Origin: a virus
Lineage: Duplodnaviria; Heunggongvirae; Uroviricota; Caudoviricetes
IMG/VR virus record: IMGVR_UViG_2681813135_000006
Length of the DNA stretch: 18,486 bases
Reading direction: 5' to 3' (one strand)
In this document: one piece after another, positions 3,332-15,652 of the stretch
Numbering within the stretch: position 1 is the first letter of the stretch
Layout of the letters: every line of letters begins with the position of its first letter
Notes under the pieces: generated by a model
The model's input: only the letters and a program-made list of their open reading frames with translations
The model's database searches: none
What the model was told of the DNA's origin: nothing
Program-made: the position numbers and the translations under genes

Positions 3332-3538
3332 TCACCCCCAGACCTTCTGACGGAGTGACCGCGGCGTACGTTCCTGCCGGTGCGCCTCCGGCAGCCGGGC
3401 GCTGACGGTCCAGGTGACGTAATCGGGATTCAGGCTTCGCTCTACCTTCACGCCGCGGCGCCGGTATTCCGCCATGAGCTCGTCGGCCTGCTGCGTGGTG
3501 CACTCGGTGTGCTGGAACCATGTTTCTTTCATCGGCAT
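3332..3538 (-). CDS. Small hypothetical nin-region protein (about 66-68 aa)
   Basis: ORF in the ninE-equivalent position; candidate starts are GTG 3541, ATG 3538 and ATG 3532, with the upstream gene's TGA overlapping. No recognisable family. Confidence 0.5.
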   Translation of the reverse strand: MPMKETWFQHTECTTQQADELMAEYRRRGVKVERSLNPDYVTWTVSARLPEAHRQERTPRSLRQKVWG

Positions 3539-4137
3539 CACCCCACGAAGCTCATGAGCTGCGCAGCGGCATTATCCGCGTCGCTACGGCTCTTGAATGC
3601 CCTGGACAGGATCCAACGCCACAGAACATCGAGTGCGGCCCTGTAGAGTTGCTGGAACTCGGTTTCGTCCATATTGGCGAAGGCGATGCTGCGGGGGTGT
3701 TTGCGGAGGGTGCCGTCAGGCAGCTGTATCGCGTCGTAGTGGCCGGATTCGATGGTTACCCAGGCGCGGTAGGCGTCGAATGACTTGCAGGCGCTGATGC
3801 TGCCCGTGCGCTTATCAGCGATGCGCTCGAGATATTGCTCAGCGGCATCCAGCAGCGCCCCTTCGTTCCCGCCGTAGGAGGCCAGAAATCTGGCATAGCC
3901 GGTCACCAGCTTGCGTTCGTTGGAAGAGATCGCCCCGCCGGTTGGCTCCCAGTATTCGAACCCGAGGTTTAAAAGCGCGAAGAAGCGGCGGTGGAAAGCC
4001 GGATTGCGGACCTGTTTGAAGTCGGCTACCAGCACGGCGCCGAGTTTGATTTTTGATTGCAGAATATCGCTGGTCTCCGGCGTCGCGGGGATCAGGATTC
4101 CTGATGACTGCTTGATGAGTTGTAGTTCGTGCGCCAT
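3538..4137 (-). CDS. Conserved prophage nin-region protein of about 199 aa (possibly DUF1367-like; tentative)
   Basis: ATG at 4137 with SD GGAGAG 6 nt upstream; long ORF in the same direction as the flanking phage genes. Family assignment is by recall only. Confidence 0.65.
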   Translation of the reverse strand: MAHELQLIKQSSGILIPATPETSDILQSKIKLGAVLVADFKQVRNPAFHRRFFALLNLGFEYWEPTGGAISSNERKLVTGYARFLASYGGNEGALLDAAEQYLERIADKRTGSISACKSFDAYRAWVTIESGHYDAIQLPDGTLRKHPRSIAFANMDETEFQQLYRAALDVLWRWILSRAFKSRSDADNAAAQLMSFVG

Positions 4138-4171: not shown

Positions 4172-4420
4172 TCAGACCGTTGATTTCATATTATCAGAAG
4201 GTTGGGTTACCCGGTAGCCGAGACGGTTAATAAACTGCATAAAACCATTAGGAGTAAAGACCTCTTCATCATCCAGCAAAGGCCGCATAGAAACCATGCC
4301 ATTGACGCGATAAATTAGATGCCTGCCCGATGAAGGAAAGCTAAACACCACGCAGCCGTCAGACCTTCTTACAATGTCATACCAGTTGTCTTCTGACGTT
4401 TGCAAAGCTGAATCACTCAC
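4172..4420 (-). CDS. Hypothetical 82-aa protein downstream of the dinI-like gene
   Basis: GTG start at 4420 with AGGGAG upstream; no family recognised. Confidence 0.45.
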   Translation of the reverse strand: MSDSALQTSEDNWYDIVRRSDGCVVFSFPSSGRHLIYRVNGMVSMRPLLDDEEVFTPNGFMQFINRLGYRVTQPSDNMKSTV

Positions 4421-4537
4421 ATTTATGTTCTCCCTTCGAGCGACTAACAGACGCGATTAAAGATTGTCGGCAGCAGCATCAGAGGGTTACGCAAATTGCG
4501 GTATTCTGAAAAATGCGCGCCAGCCTTAAGCGCAATT

Positions 4538-4771
4538 CTAATAAAACCAGTCGTCAGCGCTTTCCCAGGTATCCTGGAGGATTGATTCAATTTTCTTTTT
4601 ATCGTCCTTGTCACCACCAAAAACACTTAACCCATCGGCCCCGGCACGGCGGATTGTGAGCCTGCAATTGTCATAGTGATCATTCAGGCGCTTAAGCAGT
4701 TCTTTCTCCAGTGCTGGTACTGCGCCTTTAGGAAGTTCTTTCATGCGATCAATGGTTAATTCAACTTTCAT
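4538..4771 (-). CDS. dinI: DinI-like DNA-damage-inducible protein; start re-called to ATG at 4771
   Basis: MKVELTIDR...LSVFGGDKDDKKKIESILQDTWESADDWFY parallels E. coli DinI (MRIEVTI...ISEILQETWESADDWF) by recall. A LexA box lies immediately upstream. Confidence 0.85.
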   Translation of the reverse strand: MKVELTIDRMKELPKGAVPALEKELLKRLNDHYDNCRLTIRRAGADGLSVFGGDKDDKKKIESILQDTWESADDWFY

Positions 4772-4789
4772 AATGGCCCCCATTGCATG

Positions 4790-4809
4790 TACTGTGTTTT
4801 TATACAGTA
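4790..4809. promoter_or_regulatory. LexA (SOS) box, TACTGTGTTTTTATACAGTA, upstream of the dinI-like gene
   Basis: CTGT-N8-ACAG palindrome matching the E. coli consensus TACTGT(AT)4ACAGTA at 16 of 20 positions; 19 nt upstream of the dinI-like ATG and overlapping a plausible -10 region. Confidence 0.75.
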
Positions 4810-4871
4810 TACCTATGCGCGGAAATGATCAACGTTTTAAGAGCACAAATTGTTAATTTTCTGTCAGTTGT

Positions 4872-4899
4872 AAAAAAAGAAAACCCGCCGTAGCGGGTT
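4872..4899 (-). terminator. Rho-independent terminator on the minus strand
   Basis: Minus-strand RNA AACCCGC-UACG-GCGGGUU (perfect 7-bp stem) followed by UUCUUUUUUUU. Confidence 0.7.
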
Positions 4900-9531: not shown

Positions 9532-9615
9532 ACTGTTCTCCGCAATTACGCACAGTTTTTGCACCTGAAAGCCGTTGGTGTTCGAGCACCGCGGCTTTCG
9601 CCATTTCTGAGCCCG

Positions 9616-10173
9616 TCATAGCGCACCACCCAGCATCGTTGTAACCATCGCCATAATGGGCGCCACAGAATCAGGTCCGTCCAGGTAGAGCTTGGCTACG
9701 ATGCTCTCGCTGATTTCCTTCATCCGTTCGTGTCTGGGGGCTTTGAGGACGACAGCCTGTATCGCCTCAGCGTCTTCTTTCACCGACCTGGCGACACGAA
9801 CCGCAAAGCAGTCGTGCTTAATCACGCGATCCCGGTACGCCAGCGGCAGAACCGAAATTATTACCGGCGCCAGCTGCTCGACGTTCGCCCGGTAGGCCGG
9901 TGATTTCTCGTGGTTGTCCAGCCAGCGAAACAGCTTCACGTTCCACACATCGGCGCTGCCGGTCATGTCAATGCTGTCAAGCTCGGCCTGTTCGGCAGCC
10001 TCTTTAATCGCCAGAGCGACCGCCACGCGGCCCTCTGCCGCCGCCCAGGCGCGGACGGCAGAACAGATAGCCCGGTGATCGACCGGCTGGCCTTCAGCCT
10101 CACTGTGTTGATACTGGAATTTCAGGTGCTCTGATGGCGCTCTGTTATTCTGTTGAAAAGAAAGTGTTTGCAT
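9616..10173 (-). CDS. YdaT-like/CII-position regulatory protein (185 aa)
   Basis: ATG at 10173 with AGGAG SD. Directly downstream of the Cro/YdaS-like gene. The motif LAPVIISVLPLAYRDRV resembles the recalled Rac YdaT; family is tentative. Confidence 0.55.
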   Translation of the reverse strand: MQTLSFQQNNRAPSEHLKFQYQHSEAEGQPVDHRAICSAVRAWAAAEGRVAVALAIKEAAEQAELDSIDMTGSADVWNVKLFRWLDNHEKSPAYRANVEQLAPVIISVLPLAYRDRVIKHDCFAVRVARSVKEDAEAIQAVVLKAPRHERMKEISESIVAKLYLDGPDSVAPIMAMVTTMLGGAL

Positions 10174-10184
10174 TGTCAGTGCTC

Positions 10185-10403
10185 CTACTTTGGTAATCCG
10201 TCAGTGGGATTTGGATAGAGATCAGGGCGCAGCTCGTGGGGGGTTACGCCTGTCATTTTGAAAATCGGGAAGATATAGCTTGGCGGGACGATCCCTTGGT
10301 CACGATTCTTCCAATGACTTACAGACATACTCGTCACACCAAGCGCGATGCTGAGCTTTCTGGCAGAGCCAGCGGCTTTAATTGCTTTATCGAGTGCGGA
10401 CAT
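10185..10403 (-). CDS. Cro/YdaS-like HTH regulator (72 aa), divergent from the repressor
   Basis: ATG at 10403 with AGGAG 6 nt upstream. HTH-like KAAGSARKLSIALGVTSMSVSHWKN. Position and size match cro/ydaS in an immunity region. Confidence 0.75.
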   Translation of the reverse strand: MSALDKAIKAAGSARKLSIALGVTSMSVSHWKNRDQGIVPPSYIFPIFKMTGVTPHELRPDLYPNPTDGLPK

Positions 10404-10505
10404 GTGCTTCTCCTGCTTATTGATAGCAGAAGTAAACCACAGATTTATACTTCATGCAAACTTTGGATTTATTGCGTGCATAAACCAAATATTTACAATG
10501 ACCAT
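10404..10505. promoter_or_regulatory. Divergent immunity-region promoter/operator segment between the Cro-like and repressor genes
   Basis: AT-rich 102-bp intergenic region. For the repressor: -35 TTGCGT (10472-10477), -10 TACAAT (10494-10499), with no SD before the ATG at 10506 (leaderless-like). Pseudo-palindromes such as TTATTGCGTGCATAA are candidate operators. Hexamer assignments are inference. Confidence 0.5.
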
Positions 10506-10895
10506 ATGAGAAAAGAAGAACCCAACCTCGTTCTGGTGGAGCGCCTTACTGAGATCACTGATCGCGGCGTTACCAAAGCAGACATGGCAAGAATAGCTGG
10601 AGTCACCCCTCAGGCCGTAAACGGCTGGTTCAAAAAAGGCGTGATTAGTAAGAAATCGGCACTGGCCATAGCCGACGCTGTTGGTATTTCTGTCGCCTGG
10701 CTACTCGGTGAAGACGTTGGGGAGAAAGACGGTCTCAAACCGGACGAACAGCGTTTGCTCGAGCTCTACCGCCAGTTACCGGAAGAAGAGCAGCAGAACA
10801 TGCTCCGCATTTTTGCGCTTCGCCTGAAAGAGTTAGATGAGCTGTACGAGAAGTACATGAAGGGTCGGATTCGATCGCAAGGTGAGCAAACCTAA
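10506..10895 (+). CDS. Prophage repressor, XRE-type HTH, 129 aa, without an S24 peptidase (autocleavage) domain; RacR/CI-like role
   Basis: ATG at 10506. HTH TKADMARIAGVTPQAVNGWFKKG; the C-terminal half is a charged helical region (LLELYRQLPEEEQQNMLRIFALRLKELDELYEKYMK). Divergent from the Cro-like gene. The ORF-track N-terminal extension (from 10236) crosses the promoter region and was rejected. Confidence 0.8.
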   Translation: MRKEEPNLVLVERLTEITDRGVTKADMARIAGVTPQAVNGWFKKGVISKKSALAIADAVGISVAWLLGEDVGEKDGLKPDEQRLLELYRQLPEEEQQNMLRIFALRLKELDELYEKYMKGRIRSQGEQT

Positions 10896-10959
10896 ACCAG
10901 TAGTATCTAATTCCATGTAATAAAAATATTTCAAGATTTAATATCTTCTGGAGGATTCG

Positions 10960-11241
10960 GTGTCTAAAGAAACAACCGTCGAACTTATGCATCTTAATGA
11001 TGTAATCGAAGCGAAAAATTTCATCGAGACCAATGCTGACGGTGTCGTAACAATCGGCACACAAAATGCCGGTTACGAAGTTTACAATTTTGTGTTCCTG
11101 AATAGCAGCCCGATCATCGGTACGGATAATGCGGATATAGTCGTCAAGGGCATGCAGCGAACCAAAGTTGTGTCTGTGACTTTAAGCAAACAAAAGGCTT
11201 ATGATTTTTATCAATCCTTAAAAAGTATGTTTGAGGAATAA
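10960..11241 (+). CDS. Hypothetical 93-aa soluble protein, first gene of an AT-rich pair downstream of the repressor
   Basis: GTG at 10960 with strong SD GGAGGA 4 nt upstream; no TM segment; no family recognised. Confidence 0.65.
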   Translation: MSKETTVELMHLNDVIEAKNFIETNADGVVTIGTQNAGYEVYNFVFLNSSPIIGTDNADIVVKGMQRTKVVSVTLSKQKAYDFYQSLKSMFEE

Positions 11242-11247
11242 TAATTG

Positions 11248-11769
11248 ATGGATGCGGCTCAATCATCTCTTGGTGAAGGGAAGTTATTGATTGCATATTC
11301 AGACCATAGCGGAGCTACAGTAGGCTTAGAGTTTTCATCAGTAGCTTCGAGCCAAGCAACCTTCCTTATGGGTGCTTGTAGTTTTGCCGCTTCGGATAAA
11401 CAAAAACGGATTGTCACATCAGTTGCTATGGATGATACTGAAATCATTCATACGTCAACTGAAGATGGAGGTGACGACATGGAAAAGAGATTGGCTATTC
11501 TTGAGGTTGAAGTTGCCCACATCAAGAAAGATGTTGCCGAGATAAAAAACACAGTTTCAAAAGTTGATACGACAGTGAATTCACTGGACAAAAATATGGC
11601 TGTAGTTTTGGAGAGGCTGTCTAGTATCAAAGAGTCTGTAGACAAAAAGCCCTCATCAGACACAGTGGACAAGAAAATCTCTGATGCTAAATTGGCGATT
11701 CTCTTAGGTGTCCCTGCGATTATCGCCATTGGTACAGGGCTGTACAAAGCTTTTATGCACTTCTTTTAG
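11248..11769 (+). CDS. Hypothetical 173-aa tail-anchored membrane protein with a central coiled-coil-like region
   Basis: ATG at 11248 (SD GAGGAA upstream), 6 nt after the previous stop. Heptad-like segment EKRLAILEVEVAHIKKDVAEIKNTVSKVDTTVNSLDKNMAVVLERLSSIKESV, then a single C-terminal hydrophobic helix LAILLGVPAIIAIGTGLY. AT-rich. A strong terminator follows. Confidence 0.7.
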   Translation: MDAAQSSLGEGKLLIAYSDHSGATVGLEFSSVASSQATFLMGACSFAASDKQKRIVTSVAMDDTEIIHTSTEDGGDDMEKRLAILEVEVAHIKKDVAEIKNTVSKVDTTVNSLDKNMAVVLERLSSIKESVDKKPSSDTVDKKISDAKLAILLGVPAIIAIGTGLYKAFMHFF

Positions 11770-11841
11770 TCAGATTTGGTCAATACGCCTGAGTTATAAG
11801 GCTCTCAGCTACTAACTCTGTCGCCTTCCCCGAACCTTCTC

Positions 11842-11869
11842 ATCCCGACCACGCGTCGGGATTTTTTTT
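11842..11869 (+). terminator. Rho-independent terminator ending the repressor-side operon
   Basis: ATCCCGAC-cacgc-GTCGGGAT (8-bp perfect stem) followed by T8. Confidence 0.8.
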
Positions 11870-11943
11870 GCCTGCGATTCTGCAGACGTGTCACAAAACC
11901 CAGCCACATAAACCTCAGATTTACAATTAACACTAACCTTAAG

Positions 11944-11972
11944 TTGACACATATATAAACCAGTGATTTAAT
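11944..11972 (+). promoter_or_regulatory. Putative sigma70 promoter (early-left-like) driving the kil/recE/recT side
   Basis: -35 TTGACA (11944-11949), 17-bp spacer, -10 TTTAAT (11967-11972). An ATTTACAAT motif just upstream (11919-11927) is also present in the immunity region (10491-10499). Confidence 0.45.
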
Positions 11973-12742: not shown

Positions 12743-15652
12743 ATGGAATTTTTCCATCTGATAAAAGCCAGTCAGAAGTCTGGCAAGAAAGATGCAGTGA
12801 TTTGGTTCACTGCGAAAAGTGTAGCGCGCGCCAATCTCCAACTCGATGTGGCACTGGAAGAAGCCGGAATTGAAGAAACTGGCCGCGGTAAAGATTATGC
12901 CAAACCAATCCGCACCGATTTCCCGGTATATGACGACCTGCCGGAAGAAGGCGCAGTGGATTACACCTGGTGCAAACGCTACGAACTGCAGAACGATGAC
13001 CGCACCTGGATGCCAAAAGTCACAGCTGAAAACTCTGACGAGAAAACGGCTCAGACCGTTGATAGTCACATAACTACTGAGTCAACGCTGCCAGAAACCG
13101 CTGGCATCACGCTGGACGAACACGACGACGACTCAACCCTCTACCCGGTAGTGCAGATGCCGTTTCGTAAGCAACTGCTTTCCCAGTTCACCGCCGACGA
13201 ACTGCGCCACCACGTAACCCGCGAAGAGTACGAAGCTATCGGCGCGCTGGAGATGGACACTGATAACAGTTACGTCCAGAACTTGCTGTTAGCTGCTGAG
13301 AACTGCCCGGACGTGAAGGGTTACGACACCAAAGACCTGTGGCGCTACACCGATGCCATTCGCAAAGTGTTCAGCCAGGACAAGCGTCACGAACTCGCGC
13401 TGGTACTCCGTTTCACCAGAATGTGGGCGGCGACTGATTACATTGACCGTGGCATCCTGGCGCGTGAATGGGCTGCCGGTAATCACATCAGTAGTGTTCA
13501 GCGTACTGATTCCGGAACCAATGCCAACGGCGGTTACGTCACTGACCGTGGACCTGATGCATACCATACCCTTGACACTCTCGATTTAGAGATTGCATGT
13601 GCCCTTCTGCCTATGGACTTCAACCACTTCGAGATCCCGGGCAGCATTCTTCGTCGCGCTAAAGAAATCGTGACCAAAAAAGAAGAACCGTGGAAATCAT
13701 GGAGCAGCATTCTGCGCAATCAACCCGGCGTTCTTGGCGTTAACCGCACAGCTATTTTTAACCTGATACGTATCGCGCCGGAAAATATTCATCTAACTCC
13801 TGTCGCTCACCTGGAGTTTGTTAACCGGACCATGACTGCTGCGTTTAATGCTGCTGTTGAGTTATTGCCATTGCATGAAGCTGAGCCCGCAACACAGGAA
13901 ATTCCCCAACCTGAAAGTAAGGAGTCTCCACGCAAACCCTTCTGCACTCACGAAGAGAACCTGCAACGCGTACGTGAAGAAGAAGCACGCCGCCGCGCAG
14001 AGGAAGCGACAGCACAACCACATAAAGCCGAACAAGAACTGGTTAAAAATGTCGGCAACGGAATATTCGATGTTACGGCTTTACTGCAGAACTCAGCAAC
14101 TCATGGCACGAAACAGGCTACGGAAACCACCAGCAATGTGCAGGTTCAAGAAACTGTCAGTGATGAAAAAAATGTTGGTAATGAAATGCAGTCAGGCGAA
14201 AGCAGTCTGGAAACTGGTGAAGAGTCACATCCCGGCCAGCAGGCCGATGTAAACCAAAATACGGAATCTGTCGCTCAAAATAGCGATTCTGTAAACCAGA
14301 CTGAACCAGTTTTGGCACACGTCGAGCCAGAGGCGCAATCTGACGAACAAGCTGTTTTTTACCCCGATTACTTCGAGCCTGGGCGCTATGAAGGTCTGCC
14401 GAACGAGGTTTACCACGCTGCCAACGGCATCAGTTCCACCCAGGTAAAAGATGCGCGCGTTTCGCTGATGTACTTCAATGCGCGCCACGTTGAGAAAACC
14501 ATCGTCAAAGAGCGCTCCTCAGTGCTGGACATGGGAAACCTGGTACATGCGCTGGCGTTGCAGCCAGAACAGCTCGATGAAGAATTTAGCGTTGAACCCG
14601 TAATTCCGGAAGGTGCATTTACCACCACGGCAACGATCCGCGCGTTTATTGATGAGTACAACGCCAGCCTGCCAGCGCAACTGAGCGCAGACGATATCAA
14701 AGCTTTGCTGGATGAATACAACGCCACCCTGCCAGCGCTGGTGCCGCTGGGCGCTAGCCTGGATGAAACGGCGCAGAACTATATGGCGCTGCCAGCTGAA
14801 TTCCAACGTATCGATGCAGATCAGAAGAAGACAGCAACAGCAATGAAGGCGTGCATCAAAGAGTACAACGCCACCCTGCCAGCGCAGATTAAAACCAGCG
14901 GCAGCCGCGACGCACTACTCGAACAACTTGCGATTATCAATCCTGACCTGGTCGCGCAGGAAGCTCAGAAGCTGCAACCGCTGAAAGTCTCTGGCACGAA
15001 GGCCGATCTGATTCAGGCCGTGAAGGCAGTCAAACCAGATGCAGTGTTCGCCGACGAGCTGCTCGATGCGTGGCGCAACAACCCGGAAGGGAAAGTGCTG
15101 GTTACCCACCAGCAACTTGCCACCGCGCAGGCAATTCAGTCAGCACTGCTCTCGCACCCGACCGCAGGCATGCTGCTAACCCACCCGAGCCGCGCCGTTG
15201 AGGTGAGCTACTTTGGCTTTGACGAGGAGACGGGACTGGAAGTTCGTGTGCGCCCTGACCTTGAGATCGACCTAGACGGCGTGCGTATCGGTGCTGACCT
15301 GAAAACCATCAGCATGTGGAATGTTAAGCAGGAAAGCCTGCGCGCCAGGCTACACCGGGAAATTATTGAACGTGATTATCACCTGAGCGCGGCTATGTAC
15401 TGCGAAACCGCAGCGCTGGATCAGTTCTTCTGGATTTTCGTCAACAAAGACGAGAACTACCACTGGATCGCCATCATCGAGGCATCCGCTGAACTACTGG
15501 AGCTGGGTATGCTCGAGTACCGCAAAGCGATGCGCAATATCGCAACCGGATTCGACACAGGTGAATGGCCAGCGCCAATCACTGCTGACTACACCGACGA
15601 ACTGAACGACTTCGACCTGCGCCGCCTTGAAGCGCTGCGTACTCAGGCATAA
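12743..15652 (+). CDS. recE: RecE-like exonuclease (exodeoxyribonuclease VIII family), 969 aa; start re-called to ATG at 12743
   Basis: N-terminus MEFFHLIKASQKSGKKDAVIWF...FPVYDDLPEEGAVDYTWCKRYEL parallels recalled E. coli RecE. Long acidic/Gln-rich middle region. C-terminal region (YFGFDEETGLEVRVRPDLEIDLDGVRIGADLKTI...) is consistent with the RecE nuclease domain. SD AGAGGA 6 nt upstream of the ATG. Confidence 0.85.
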   Translation: MEFFHLIKASQKSGKKDAVIWFTAKSVARANLQLDVALEEAGIEETGRGKDYAKPIRTDFPVYDDLPEEGAVDYTWCKRYELQNDDRTWMPKVTAENSDEKTAQTVDSHITTESTLPETAGITLDEHDDDSTLYPVVQMPFRKQLLSQFTADELRHHVTREEYEAIGALEMDTDNSYVQNLLLAAENCPDVKGYDTKDLWRYTDAIRKVFSQDKRHELALVLRFTRMWAATDYIDRGILAREWAAGNHISSVQRTDSGTNANGGYVTDRGPDAYHTLDTLDLEIACALLPMDFNHFEIPGSILRRAKEIVTKKEEPWKSWSSILRNQPGVLGVNRTAIFNLIRIAPENIHLTPVAHLEFVNRTMTAAFNAAVELLPLHEAEPATQEIPQPESKESPRKPFCTHEENLQRVREEEARRRAEEATAQPHKAEQELVKNVGNGIFDVTALLQNSATHGTKQATETTSNVQVQETVSDEKNVGNEMQSGESSLETGEESHPGQQADVNQNTESVAQNSDSVNQTEPVLAHVEPEAQSDEQAVFYPDYFEPGRYEGLPNEVYHAANGISSTQVKDARVSLMYFNARHVEKTIVKERSSVLDMGNLVHALALQPEQLDEEFSVEPVIPEGAFTTTATIRAFIDEYNASLPAQLSADDIKALLDEYNATLPALVPLGASLDETAQNYMALPAEFQRIDADQKKTATAMKACIKEYNATLPAQIKTSGSRDALLEQLAIINPDLVAQEAQKLQPLKVSGTKADLIQAVKAVKPDAVFADELLDAWRNNPEGKVLVTHQQLATAQAIQSALLSHPTAGMLLTHPSRAVEVSYFGFDEETGLEVRVRPDLEIDLDGVRIGADLKTISMWNVKQESLRARLHREIIERDYHLSAAMYCETAALDQFFWIFVNKDENYHWIAIIEASAELLELGMLEYRKAMRNIATGFDTGEWPAPITADYTDELNDFDLRRLEALRTQA

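Follow-up and report, generated by a model that had tools for sequence, protein, structure and literature searches.

It is very likely that positions 10404-10895 comprise the right operator, the maintenance promoter and the repressor gene of an E. coli prophage that is lambdoid and Rac/Gifsy-like and, as part of one and the same explanation, that the mRNA of this repressor begins at its own AUG, i.e. that it is leaderless. The conclusion on the leaderless start is supported by the comparison of related loci and by experiments on relatives of this repressor. The anatomy of the region, its conservation and the family membership of the repressor are observed directly in the sequences compared here.

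Prophage context of the immunity region

The window (the whole stretch of DNA that was analysed, 18,486 nucleotides) is an E. coli prophage of the lambdoid, Rac/Gifsy-like kind. Its part 9600-11800 is present at about 100% identity and with full coverage in 13 complete E. coli genomes; NCTC11023, ECCWS199 and KL53 are among the strains with exactly this prophage. In the element of ECCWS199 the lysis genes are followed by an antiterminator, a dinI homologue, the replication O/P genes and the immunity region, and then by ydaE, recE, recT and an integrase gene adjoining kch. A Pfam search of the window also places a replication O homologue beyond the ydaS/ydaT-like pair, and no tRNA genes were found in the 18.5 kb. 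The genes of the immunity region are as follows.

9616-10173, - strand: ydaT-like gene (CII analogue), 185 aa, Pfam YdaT 1.5e-17
10185-10403, - strand: ydaS-like gene (Cro analogue), 72 aa, Pfam YdaS 1.4e-13, with an AGGAG Shine-Dalgarno sequence at 10410-10414
10506-10895, + strand: repressor gene (CI analogue, assigned to the GfoR/GfhR family), 129 aa, identified by its ORF, Pfam and the conserved ATG
10960-11241 and 11245-11769, + strand: two AT-rich accessory ORFs of no assigned function, between the repressor gene and the terminator
11842-11870, + strand: intrinsic terminator closing the repressor operon

The two accessory ORFs match phrog_12039 and phrog_12602 and are not related to paaA2-parE2; PADLOC gave no credible defence-system match for either of them, and the slot that they occupy downstream of the repressor gene varies between relatives.

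A -10 hexamer precedes the repressor start codon

The elements assigned around the repressor start are the following.

10472-10477, + strand: putative PRM-like -35 element TTGCGT, weak, with a 16-nt spacer
10494-10499, + strand: PRM-like -10 hexamer TACAAT, separated from ATG 10506 by gaccat (6 nt)
10506, + strand: A of the AUG, the transcription start predicted from the geometry, 7 nt past the -10 hexamer

The first-pass annotation of this DNA had pointed to a TACAAT element 6 nt before the repressor ATG and to the lack of a Shine-Dalgarno sequence there. Direct reading of the sequence bears out the former. The latter is in agreement with the pairing energies, as the best pairing between the 20 nt upstream of ATG 10506 and the 3' end of 16S rRNA is +0.7 kcal/mol, versus -7.4 kcal/mol for the divergent ydaS-like gene, which lies 102 bp from the repressor ATG. 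When 34 genes that PGAP annotates in this prophage are taken as controls, the median is -6.6 kcal/mol, with three of them weaker than -3.3 kcal/mol, and only one has a -10-like hexamer (5/6 matches) 5-8 nt before its start. A hexamer with at least 5/6 matches that ends 5-8 nt before the ATG is nevertheless obtained in 4.4% of shuffles of the AT-rich 102-bp spacer, and therefore the TACAAT of this single locus is suggestive at most; it is the conservation in the relatives, described below, by which the -10/ATG geometry exceeds chance.

The PRM-like promoter is weak, with 8/12 consensus matches. At the -35 position other immunity types also have a sequence of the type TTGnGn (TTGAGT, TTGAGC). 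A consensus promoter scan with a threshold of 9/12 made no call in either OR or OL, nor in the dinI region, and because its rules (9/12 matches; an A required as the second base of the -10 element) leave out weak or TTTAAT-type elements, the promoters described here were assigned by reading and by conservation. In the predicted fold of the first 50 nt of the mRNA the AUG is unpaired, but this is indistinguishable from shuffled sequences (z = 0.38). A further + strand promoter candidate upstream, TATACT (10446-10451), was dropped, as its key positions vary in otherwise identical relatives. By analogy with RacR, additional leadered transcripts may also arise here from upstream promoters.

The start codon and its geometry are conserved in related loci

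The window was compared with 24 genome loci of Enterobacteriaceae (62-98% identity), three diverged E. coli versions and CP-933P, giving 29 loci (28 relatives and the window; individual loci carry L numbers), which fall into four groups by operator and helix-turn-helix (HTH) domain. For the locus search, an alignment of 17 sequences proved too diverse and was replaced by a closer one of six sequences. The leaderless-looking start noted at first pass is a property of the whole set: all 29 loci have an ATG aligned with 10506, and in every one of them a -10-like hexamer (TACAAT, TAGAAT, TAAAAT, TATTCT or GATAAT) ends 6-8 nt before this ATG, with anti-Shine-Dalgarno pairing between +1.5 and -3.2 kcal/mol, so that the geometry is kept throughout and a Shine-Dalgarno sequence is absent. 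The four operator/HTH groups share this geometry, and therefore the arrangement has been maintained while the flanking DNA diverged. Near-identical loci differ most in the six nucleotides that separate hexamer and ATG (gaccat, gtcgat, gaacct, gaccct, gagcct, ggtgaa, gagaga), whereas the operators, the -10 hexamer and the encoded MRKEEPN are unchanged. Six variable nucleotides between a fixed hexamer and a fixed MRKEEPN are the pattern of a promoter discriminator and not of two codons.

These observations bear on the annotated start. PGAP places the start at GTG 10476, 30 nt upstream of the ATG, giving a protein of 139 aa that would begin with MHKPNIYNDH, and database entries for the same protein have lengths of 123, 124, 127, 137, 139, 140 and 161 aa. 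An in-frame start codon (GTG or ATG) at -30 is restricted to the closest relatives, eight loci (the window, L005, L007-L011 and the Salmonella locus L032). In 16 loci an in-frame stop codon 1-5 codons upstream of the ATG makes a longer protein impossible.

It is conceivable that both forms are made, the leaderless 129-aa protein from PRM in lysogens and the 139-aa protein during establishment or induction from an upstream, YdaT-activated, PRE-like promoter. This would resemble the extended GfhR* of Gifsy-3, and YdaT activates a reverse promoter in both Rac and CP-933P; moreover, the frame of the window is open upstream to 10236 and the -30 start is kept within its immunity type. However, the frame is closed by a stop at -9 in L012, a locus with the same type of operator, the Shine-Dalgarno sequence of GTG 10476 is poor, and a PRE-like promoter or YdaT box was searched for here and not found, so that the two-form arrangement is a doubtful one, and its precise version, with the 139-aa form translated from GTG 10476 on YdaT-activated PRE-like transcripts, must be called unlikely. 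If two isoforms do exist, the ten added residues would be a translated promoter plus O3 and could give the establishment or induction form altered properties, and the unexplained GfhR* observation of Gifsy-3 would be generalized.

That GTG 10476 is the only true start, used on a leadered mRNA from an upstream promoter with TACAAT merely coding for Tyr-Asn, is highly improbable. Besides the PGAP call and the -30 start of the closest relatives, this reading can draw on a weak GGA 8 nt upstream of the GTG (pairing -3.1 kcal/mol) and, again, on the extended Gifsy-3 isoform found after induction. The -30 start is missing, however, in the 16 relatives with the nearby stop codon, the codons before the ATG are hypervariable (DH, VD, EP, DP, GP, GE) next to the invariant MRKEEPN, PGAP itself picks the ATG in L004-L006, and the lysogenic product of Gifsy-3 is the short form, with its promoter between the two AUGs. 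The PGAP start of the repressor gene is therefore probably wrong.

Predicted operators and promoters of the OR and OL regions

In OR, three 15-bp operators of the form TAAA-N7-TTTA are predicted with a period of 24 bp, and a matching region lies past the terminator of the repressor operon and ahead of ydaE/recE/recT.

10431-10459, - strand: putative PR-like promoter of the ydaS/ydaT operon, -35 TTGCAT at 10454-10459, -10 TTTACT at 10431-10436, 17-nt spacer
10433-10447: operator O1, TAAACCACAGATTTA, centre -66 from the ATG, overlapping the -10 element and spacer of the rightward (ydaS) promoter
10457-10471: operator O2, CAAACTTTGGATTTA, centre -42 from the ATG, between both -35 elements
10481-10495: operator O3, TAAACCAAATATTTA, centre -18, its final two bases also opening the PRM -10 hexamer
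11909-11972, + strand: OL/PL-like region, TTGACA (11944-11949), 17 nt, TTTAAT (11967-11972), flanked by two operators
11909-11923 and 11956-11970: OL operators TAAACCTCAGATTTA and TAAACCAGTGATTTA, exact copies bracketing the PL-like promoter

The centres at -66, -42 and -18 correspond to the positions of OR1, OR2 and OR3 of lambda relative to the PRM start. The register of O3 relative to the -10 hexamer is identical in all 28 tabulated loci. The ydaS-like promoter overlaps both O1 and O2, and in the Gifsy-1-type loci TTGACA-17-TTTAAT is found at the equivalent position.

There are four exact matches to TAAACCNNNNATTTA in the 18.5-kb window, all within OR or OL, and together with one degenerate copy they make up the full set of operators, which is limited to these two regions; the total number of matches to the operator pattern was equalled by none of 200 shuffles. 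The repeat finder in its default setting missed one of the three OR operators and gave no inverted repeats; O2 and the OL pair were obtained by pattern search. The half-sites co-vary with the HTH type of the repressor, being TAAA..TTTA in the window's type, TAAG..CTTA in L004, L006, L013 and L014, GTAAAGC..TTTAC in L015, L016 and L030, and TAAACAT.ATGTTTA in L017-L029.

A short repressor of the GfoR/GfhR family

The 129-aa repressor matches only HTH families in Pfam (HTH_3, 1.5e-6), without a match to Peptidase_S24. Its AlphaFold2 model (pLDDT 85.7) is all-helical, with a five-helix HTH domain (residues 8-66) joined by a linker to a helical hairpin (79-126), which presumably serves dimerization. 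The best PDB matches of this model in Foldseek are the DNA-binding domains of P22 c2 and the 434 repressor, and TP901-1 CI is also matched; no peptidase fold was found by this search. The earlier description of the repressor as peptidase-less is thus borne out by both the Pfam result and the C-terminal hairpin of the model. A sequence search of the PDB gave only weak matches to the 434 repressor, apart from polyubiquitin matches that were rejected as spurious, arising from a short 'DGLKPDEQRL' match summed over repeats.

The membership of the GfoR/GfhR (Gifsy) family, recognized through primer-encoded peptides and published hallmarks, rests on strong but indirect evidence. The published gfoR cloning primer encodes KEKTHQIN after the His tag, the peptide with which the L019-L021 and L025 repressors begin, the primer being identical to L025, and GfoR-like proteins starting with this peptide are 62-74% identical to the window repressor (63-74% by tblastn for L019-L021 and L025). 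The Salmonella protein P0082, present on more than a thousand contigs, is 91% identical to the window repressor. At its locus an in-frame ATG is followed 30 nt later by a second one, with TACAAT in between and a parA-family gene downstream, and because the two AUGs, the promoter between them and the parA order match the published description of gfhR, P0082 is taken to be gfhR-like. Functional phages with repressors of this family are PHB10, SEN34 and mEp237.

The relation to other short repressors is more distant. The module had been described as of the RacR/YdaS/YdaT type, which holds for its YdaS and YdaT parts, as judged by Pfam, but not for the repressor, which is of the GfoR/GfhR type and resembles RacR over 27 aa of the HTH motif (48%) and no more. 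PaaR2 is probably a distant relative of the window repressor, according to sequence comparison: BLASTP gives a weak match (19% identity over 81 aa, E 5e-4), both proteins match phrog_5736 over their length (window repressor 5.1e-8, PaaR2 6.9e-39), and the alignment shows a common C-terminal helical motif, 'LL..F..LPE.EQ'. The DicA model is matched far under its cutoff (34 versus 101 bits).

Probable induction by a LexA-controlled antirepressor

When immunity types are compared, identity is 50-57% for the N-terminal HTH domain and 84-98% for the C-terminal domain. As the C-terminal domain is near-invariant, it is a candidate for a shared antirepressor target, and in the window repressor it would be the obvious one. 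Away from the immunity region, the prophage itself appears to encode such an antirepressor, in a dinI-antirepressor operon with a LexA box.

4172-4420, - strand: gfoA-like antirepressor gene, 82 aa, 89% identical to Salmonella P0273
4538-4771, - strand: dinI homologue, phrog_189 3.5e-27, NCBIfam DinI 4.4e-26
4790-4809, - strand: LexA box TACTGTATAAAAACACAGTA, containing CTGT-N8-ACAG at 4792-4807
4882-4899: terminator preceding the LexA box/dinI operon

The motif CTGT-N8-ACAG has a single occurrence in the window. The N-terminus of P0273 (MSNSALQ) and its VTPPSD stretch are encoded by the published gfoA cloning primers. In the Gifsy phages the repressors escape cleavage and are bound by small antirepressors, which release them from DNA; the genes for these antirepressors lie behind a dinI homologue, in an operon under LexA control that is preceded by a terminator; GfoA and GfhA each act on both GfoR and GfhR despite the different operators (PMC3121763). 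The lack of a peptidase domain in the window repressor is explained by the LexA-controlled antirepressor operon elsewhere in the window. The combination of a divergent HTH domain with a near-constant C-terminal domain also provides a sequence rationale for the induction of heteroimmune prophages by one antirepressor.

The divergent ydaS-like and ydaT-like genes

The resemblance of the divergent genes to ydaS and ydaT, also proposed at first pass, is clear, as both proteins score above the Pfam gathering cutoffs, YdaS (PF15943) with 50.9 bits versus 30 and YdaT (PF06254) with 64.2 bits versus 21. The YdaS-like protein also matches the Xylella Cro structure 3bd1 (1.7e-5). The YdaT-like protein is 30% identical to K-12 YdaT and matches phrog_163, a CII-like transcriptional activator (3.1e-40); a PDB sequence search gave no match for it. 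The reverse promoter on which YdaT acts as an activator in Rac and CP-933P lies within one of the genes ydaS and ydaT or between them, and in the window a search for the CP-933P YdaT box (TTGATT-N6-AATCAA) or for local repeats marking PRE yielded nothing above chance.

YdaS and YdaT of E. coli Rac had further been described as toxic when de-repressed. The toxicity is real in the literature, as loss of RacR in K-12 leads to toxicity (PMC5700377, PMC5700373), but it is a consequence of the switch: YdaS and YdaT are now seen as analogues of Cro and CII and not as dedicated toxins (PMC8630535, PMC5917428, PMC11879457), and the toxicity of YdaT has been attributed to regulatory effects in later work. 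That the locus would be a toxin-antitoxin-like addiction module, with the repressor as antidote, instead of a lysis-lysogeny switch, as the Pfam names YdaS_toxin and YdaT_toxin and the early K-12 reports could suggest, is barely credible given the complete lambdoid context (O/P, antiterminator, lysis genes, recET, integrase), the presence of operator sets in both OR and OL, the occurrence of the repressor family in functional phages and the experimentally established Cro and CII roles of YdaS and YdaT.

Proposed mechanism of the switch

In the preferred reading, that of a lysis-lysogeny switch with a leaderless repressor mRNA, the repressor would bind the three TAAA-N7-TTTA operators, 24 bp apart. 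RNA polymerase, using TACAAT and the weak -35 element, would start at or within 1-2 nt of the A of ATG 10506, and the resulting mRNA would be translated through direct recognition of its 5'-terminal AUG, as with lambda cI transcribed from PRM. Occupancy of O1 and O2 would block the promoter of the divergent ydaS-like/ydaT-like operon, while O2, by the position of its centre, may stimulate PRM, and O3, which shares two bases with the -10 hexamer, may shut PRM at high repressor levels. The PL-like promoter at 11909-11972 would be closed by the same repressor. With no autocleavage domain in the repressor, induction would proceed via SOS de-repression of the dinI/gfoA-like operon, and the 82-aa antirepressor would bind the repressor and free it from the DNA. 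For the leaderless start, the non-cleavage of the repressor and the action of the antirepressor, this scheme borrows from experiments on relatives, and it is from the positions of the elements that the start of the mRNA, the role of each operator and the activation by O2 are inferred.

The current understanding of the biology is not challenged by this locus, and its value is mostly practical. Because the design of its relatives is well documented, it is useful chiefly for the correction of start-site annotation: a -10 hexamer, 6-8 nt and an ATG fix the starts of this repressor family in many Enterobacteriaceae prophages.

Comparison with known leaderless repressors and related switches

Lambda cI mRNA made from PRM is an experimentally established example of a leaderless repressor transcript, and the same is predicted from the geometry for the window. 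Lambda is also alike in its divergent promoters, between which three operators recur about every 24 bp, and in its matching OL/PL region. Unlike lambda, the window encodes a repressor without the S24 autocleavage domain, for which induction by an antirepressor is predicted, and no sequence relationship between the two repressors can be detected past the HTH fold.

Further leaderless examples in E. coli are dicA, racR and ymfK, as found by dRNA-seq (PMC4681348). The leaderless transcript of racR comes from PracR3, its strongest promoter, upstream of which there are two weaker ones (PMC9638921). The RacR module of K-12 Rac and the DicA module of Qin have the same layout as the window, with short, non-cleavable repressors and leaderless transcripts (the main one, from PracR3, in the case of RacR), and the window prophage shares recE, recT and ydaE with Rac. 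Nine monomer sites and three promoters set RacR apart from the window.

In CP-933P, leaderless translation has been proven for PaaR2 itself, as the transcript starts at the A of the ATG according to 5' RACE and the protein proved on N-terminal sequencing to begin with MQKKE, in agreement with its mass (PMC8630535). The paaR2 locus has GATAAT, 6 nt and ATG, a spacing equal to that of the window, and the likeness extends to the short HTH repressor with the 'LL..F..LPE.EQ' C-terminal helical domain, the spacer of about 100 bp and the divergent ydaS/ydaT genes. The repressors, however, share only about 19% identity, the CP-933P operators are GTTTAGTAA repeats, paaA2-parE2 lies downstream of paaR2 where the window carries unrelated ORFs, and CP-933P reportedly fails to respond to mitomycin C.

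The closest systems are those of Gifsy-3 and Gifsy-1. The two AUGs of gfhR in Gifsy-3 enclose the promoter of the short form, and this short form is the lysogenic product, the extended GfhR* being made on induction (PMC3121763). With 27 nt between the two AUGs and the promoter inside, there is no space for a leader, a consequence not stated in that paper, and a literature search pairing 'leaderless' with 'Gifsy' returned no paper that makes this statement. The window shares with these phages the repressor family (91% identity to the gfhR-like and 62-74% to the GfoR-like proteins), operators that match those of the Salmonella locus, and the succession of terminator, LexA box, dinI and antirepressor operon, with an antirepressor that is 89% identical. 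It differs in its host, E. coli, in having a YdaT-type activator where Gifsy has one of the Phage_CII type, in the two AT-rich ORFs at the place of parA, and in the upstream in-frame start, which is GTG in the window and AUG in Gifsy. Clearly, the design of this switch is an ordinary one, already described for such phages, to which the locus adds another example.

Repressor conservation and the predicted antirepressor operon

Among the related repressor loci L004-L030, the conservation of the repressor is mosaic: between immunity types, the DNA-binding domain (residues 1-68) has 50-57% identity, and the C-terminal helical domain (residues 69-125) has 84-98% identity. On the basis of these sequences, the pattern suggests either module exchange or strong constraint by a common antirepressor. 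The gene predicted to encode the antirepressor, together with the ORF that follows it, is located as follows:

4172-4899, minus strand: predicted SOS-controlled operon, with a terminator, a LexA box, a dinI homologue and a gfoA-like antirepressor gene
3538-4137, minus strand: 199-aa ORF after the gfoA-like antirepressor gene, matching phrog_319

A terminator-like hairpin (4516-4534) separates the dinI homologue from the gfoA-like gene, which has a GTG start codon and whose product has database homologues all labelled "hypothetical protein". The 199-aa ORF, named DUF1367 by PGAP, occupies the place where irsA has been described in the Gifsy operon; phrog_319 is the NinB/Orf recombination mediator.

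Start of the repressor gene and putative promoter elements

For the repressor gene (12877-13296 in the coordinates of locus L001), PGAP places the start at the GTG at 10476, with the conserved ATG lying 30 nt further downstream. The same protein is deposited in public databases at no fewer than seven lengths, ranging from 123 to 161 aa; this spread shows that gene callers systematically mis-start this gene, which lacks a Shine-Dalgarno sequence.

10446-10451, plus strand: second -10-like hexamer, TATACT, within the spacer

This hexamer could be the source of a leadered repressor transcript, as is known for racR; its key positions are not kept in close relatives.

11909-11972: OL/PL-like control region, with two exact copies of the predicted operator on either side of TTGACA-17-TTTAAT

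This region precedes the ydaE/recE/recT genes. Its first operator copy is followed by TACAAT (11921-11926), duplicating the layout of operator O3 and the -10 hexamer at the repressor promoter.

Accessory genes downstream of the repressor gene

10960-11241, plus strand: AT-rich ORF, matching phrog_12039
11245-11769, plus strand: AT-rich ORF, matching phrog_12602

Both ORFs, situated downstream of the repressor gene and ahead of the terminator (11842-11862), have a GC content of ~0.39-0.40, compared with 0.45-0.63 in the windows immediately upstream, and both phrogs are without annotated function. The product of the second ORF has a coiled-coil region and a hydrophobic segment at its C-terminal end. 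This position, which relatives occupy with other genes, resembles a slot for morons or exclusion genes: at loci L004 and L006 it encodes a protein of ~466 aa, in CP-933P it holds paaA2-parE2, and in a Salmonella relative it holds parA.
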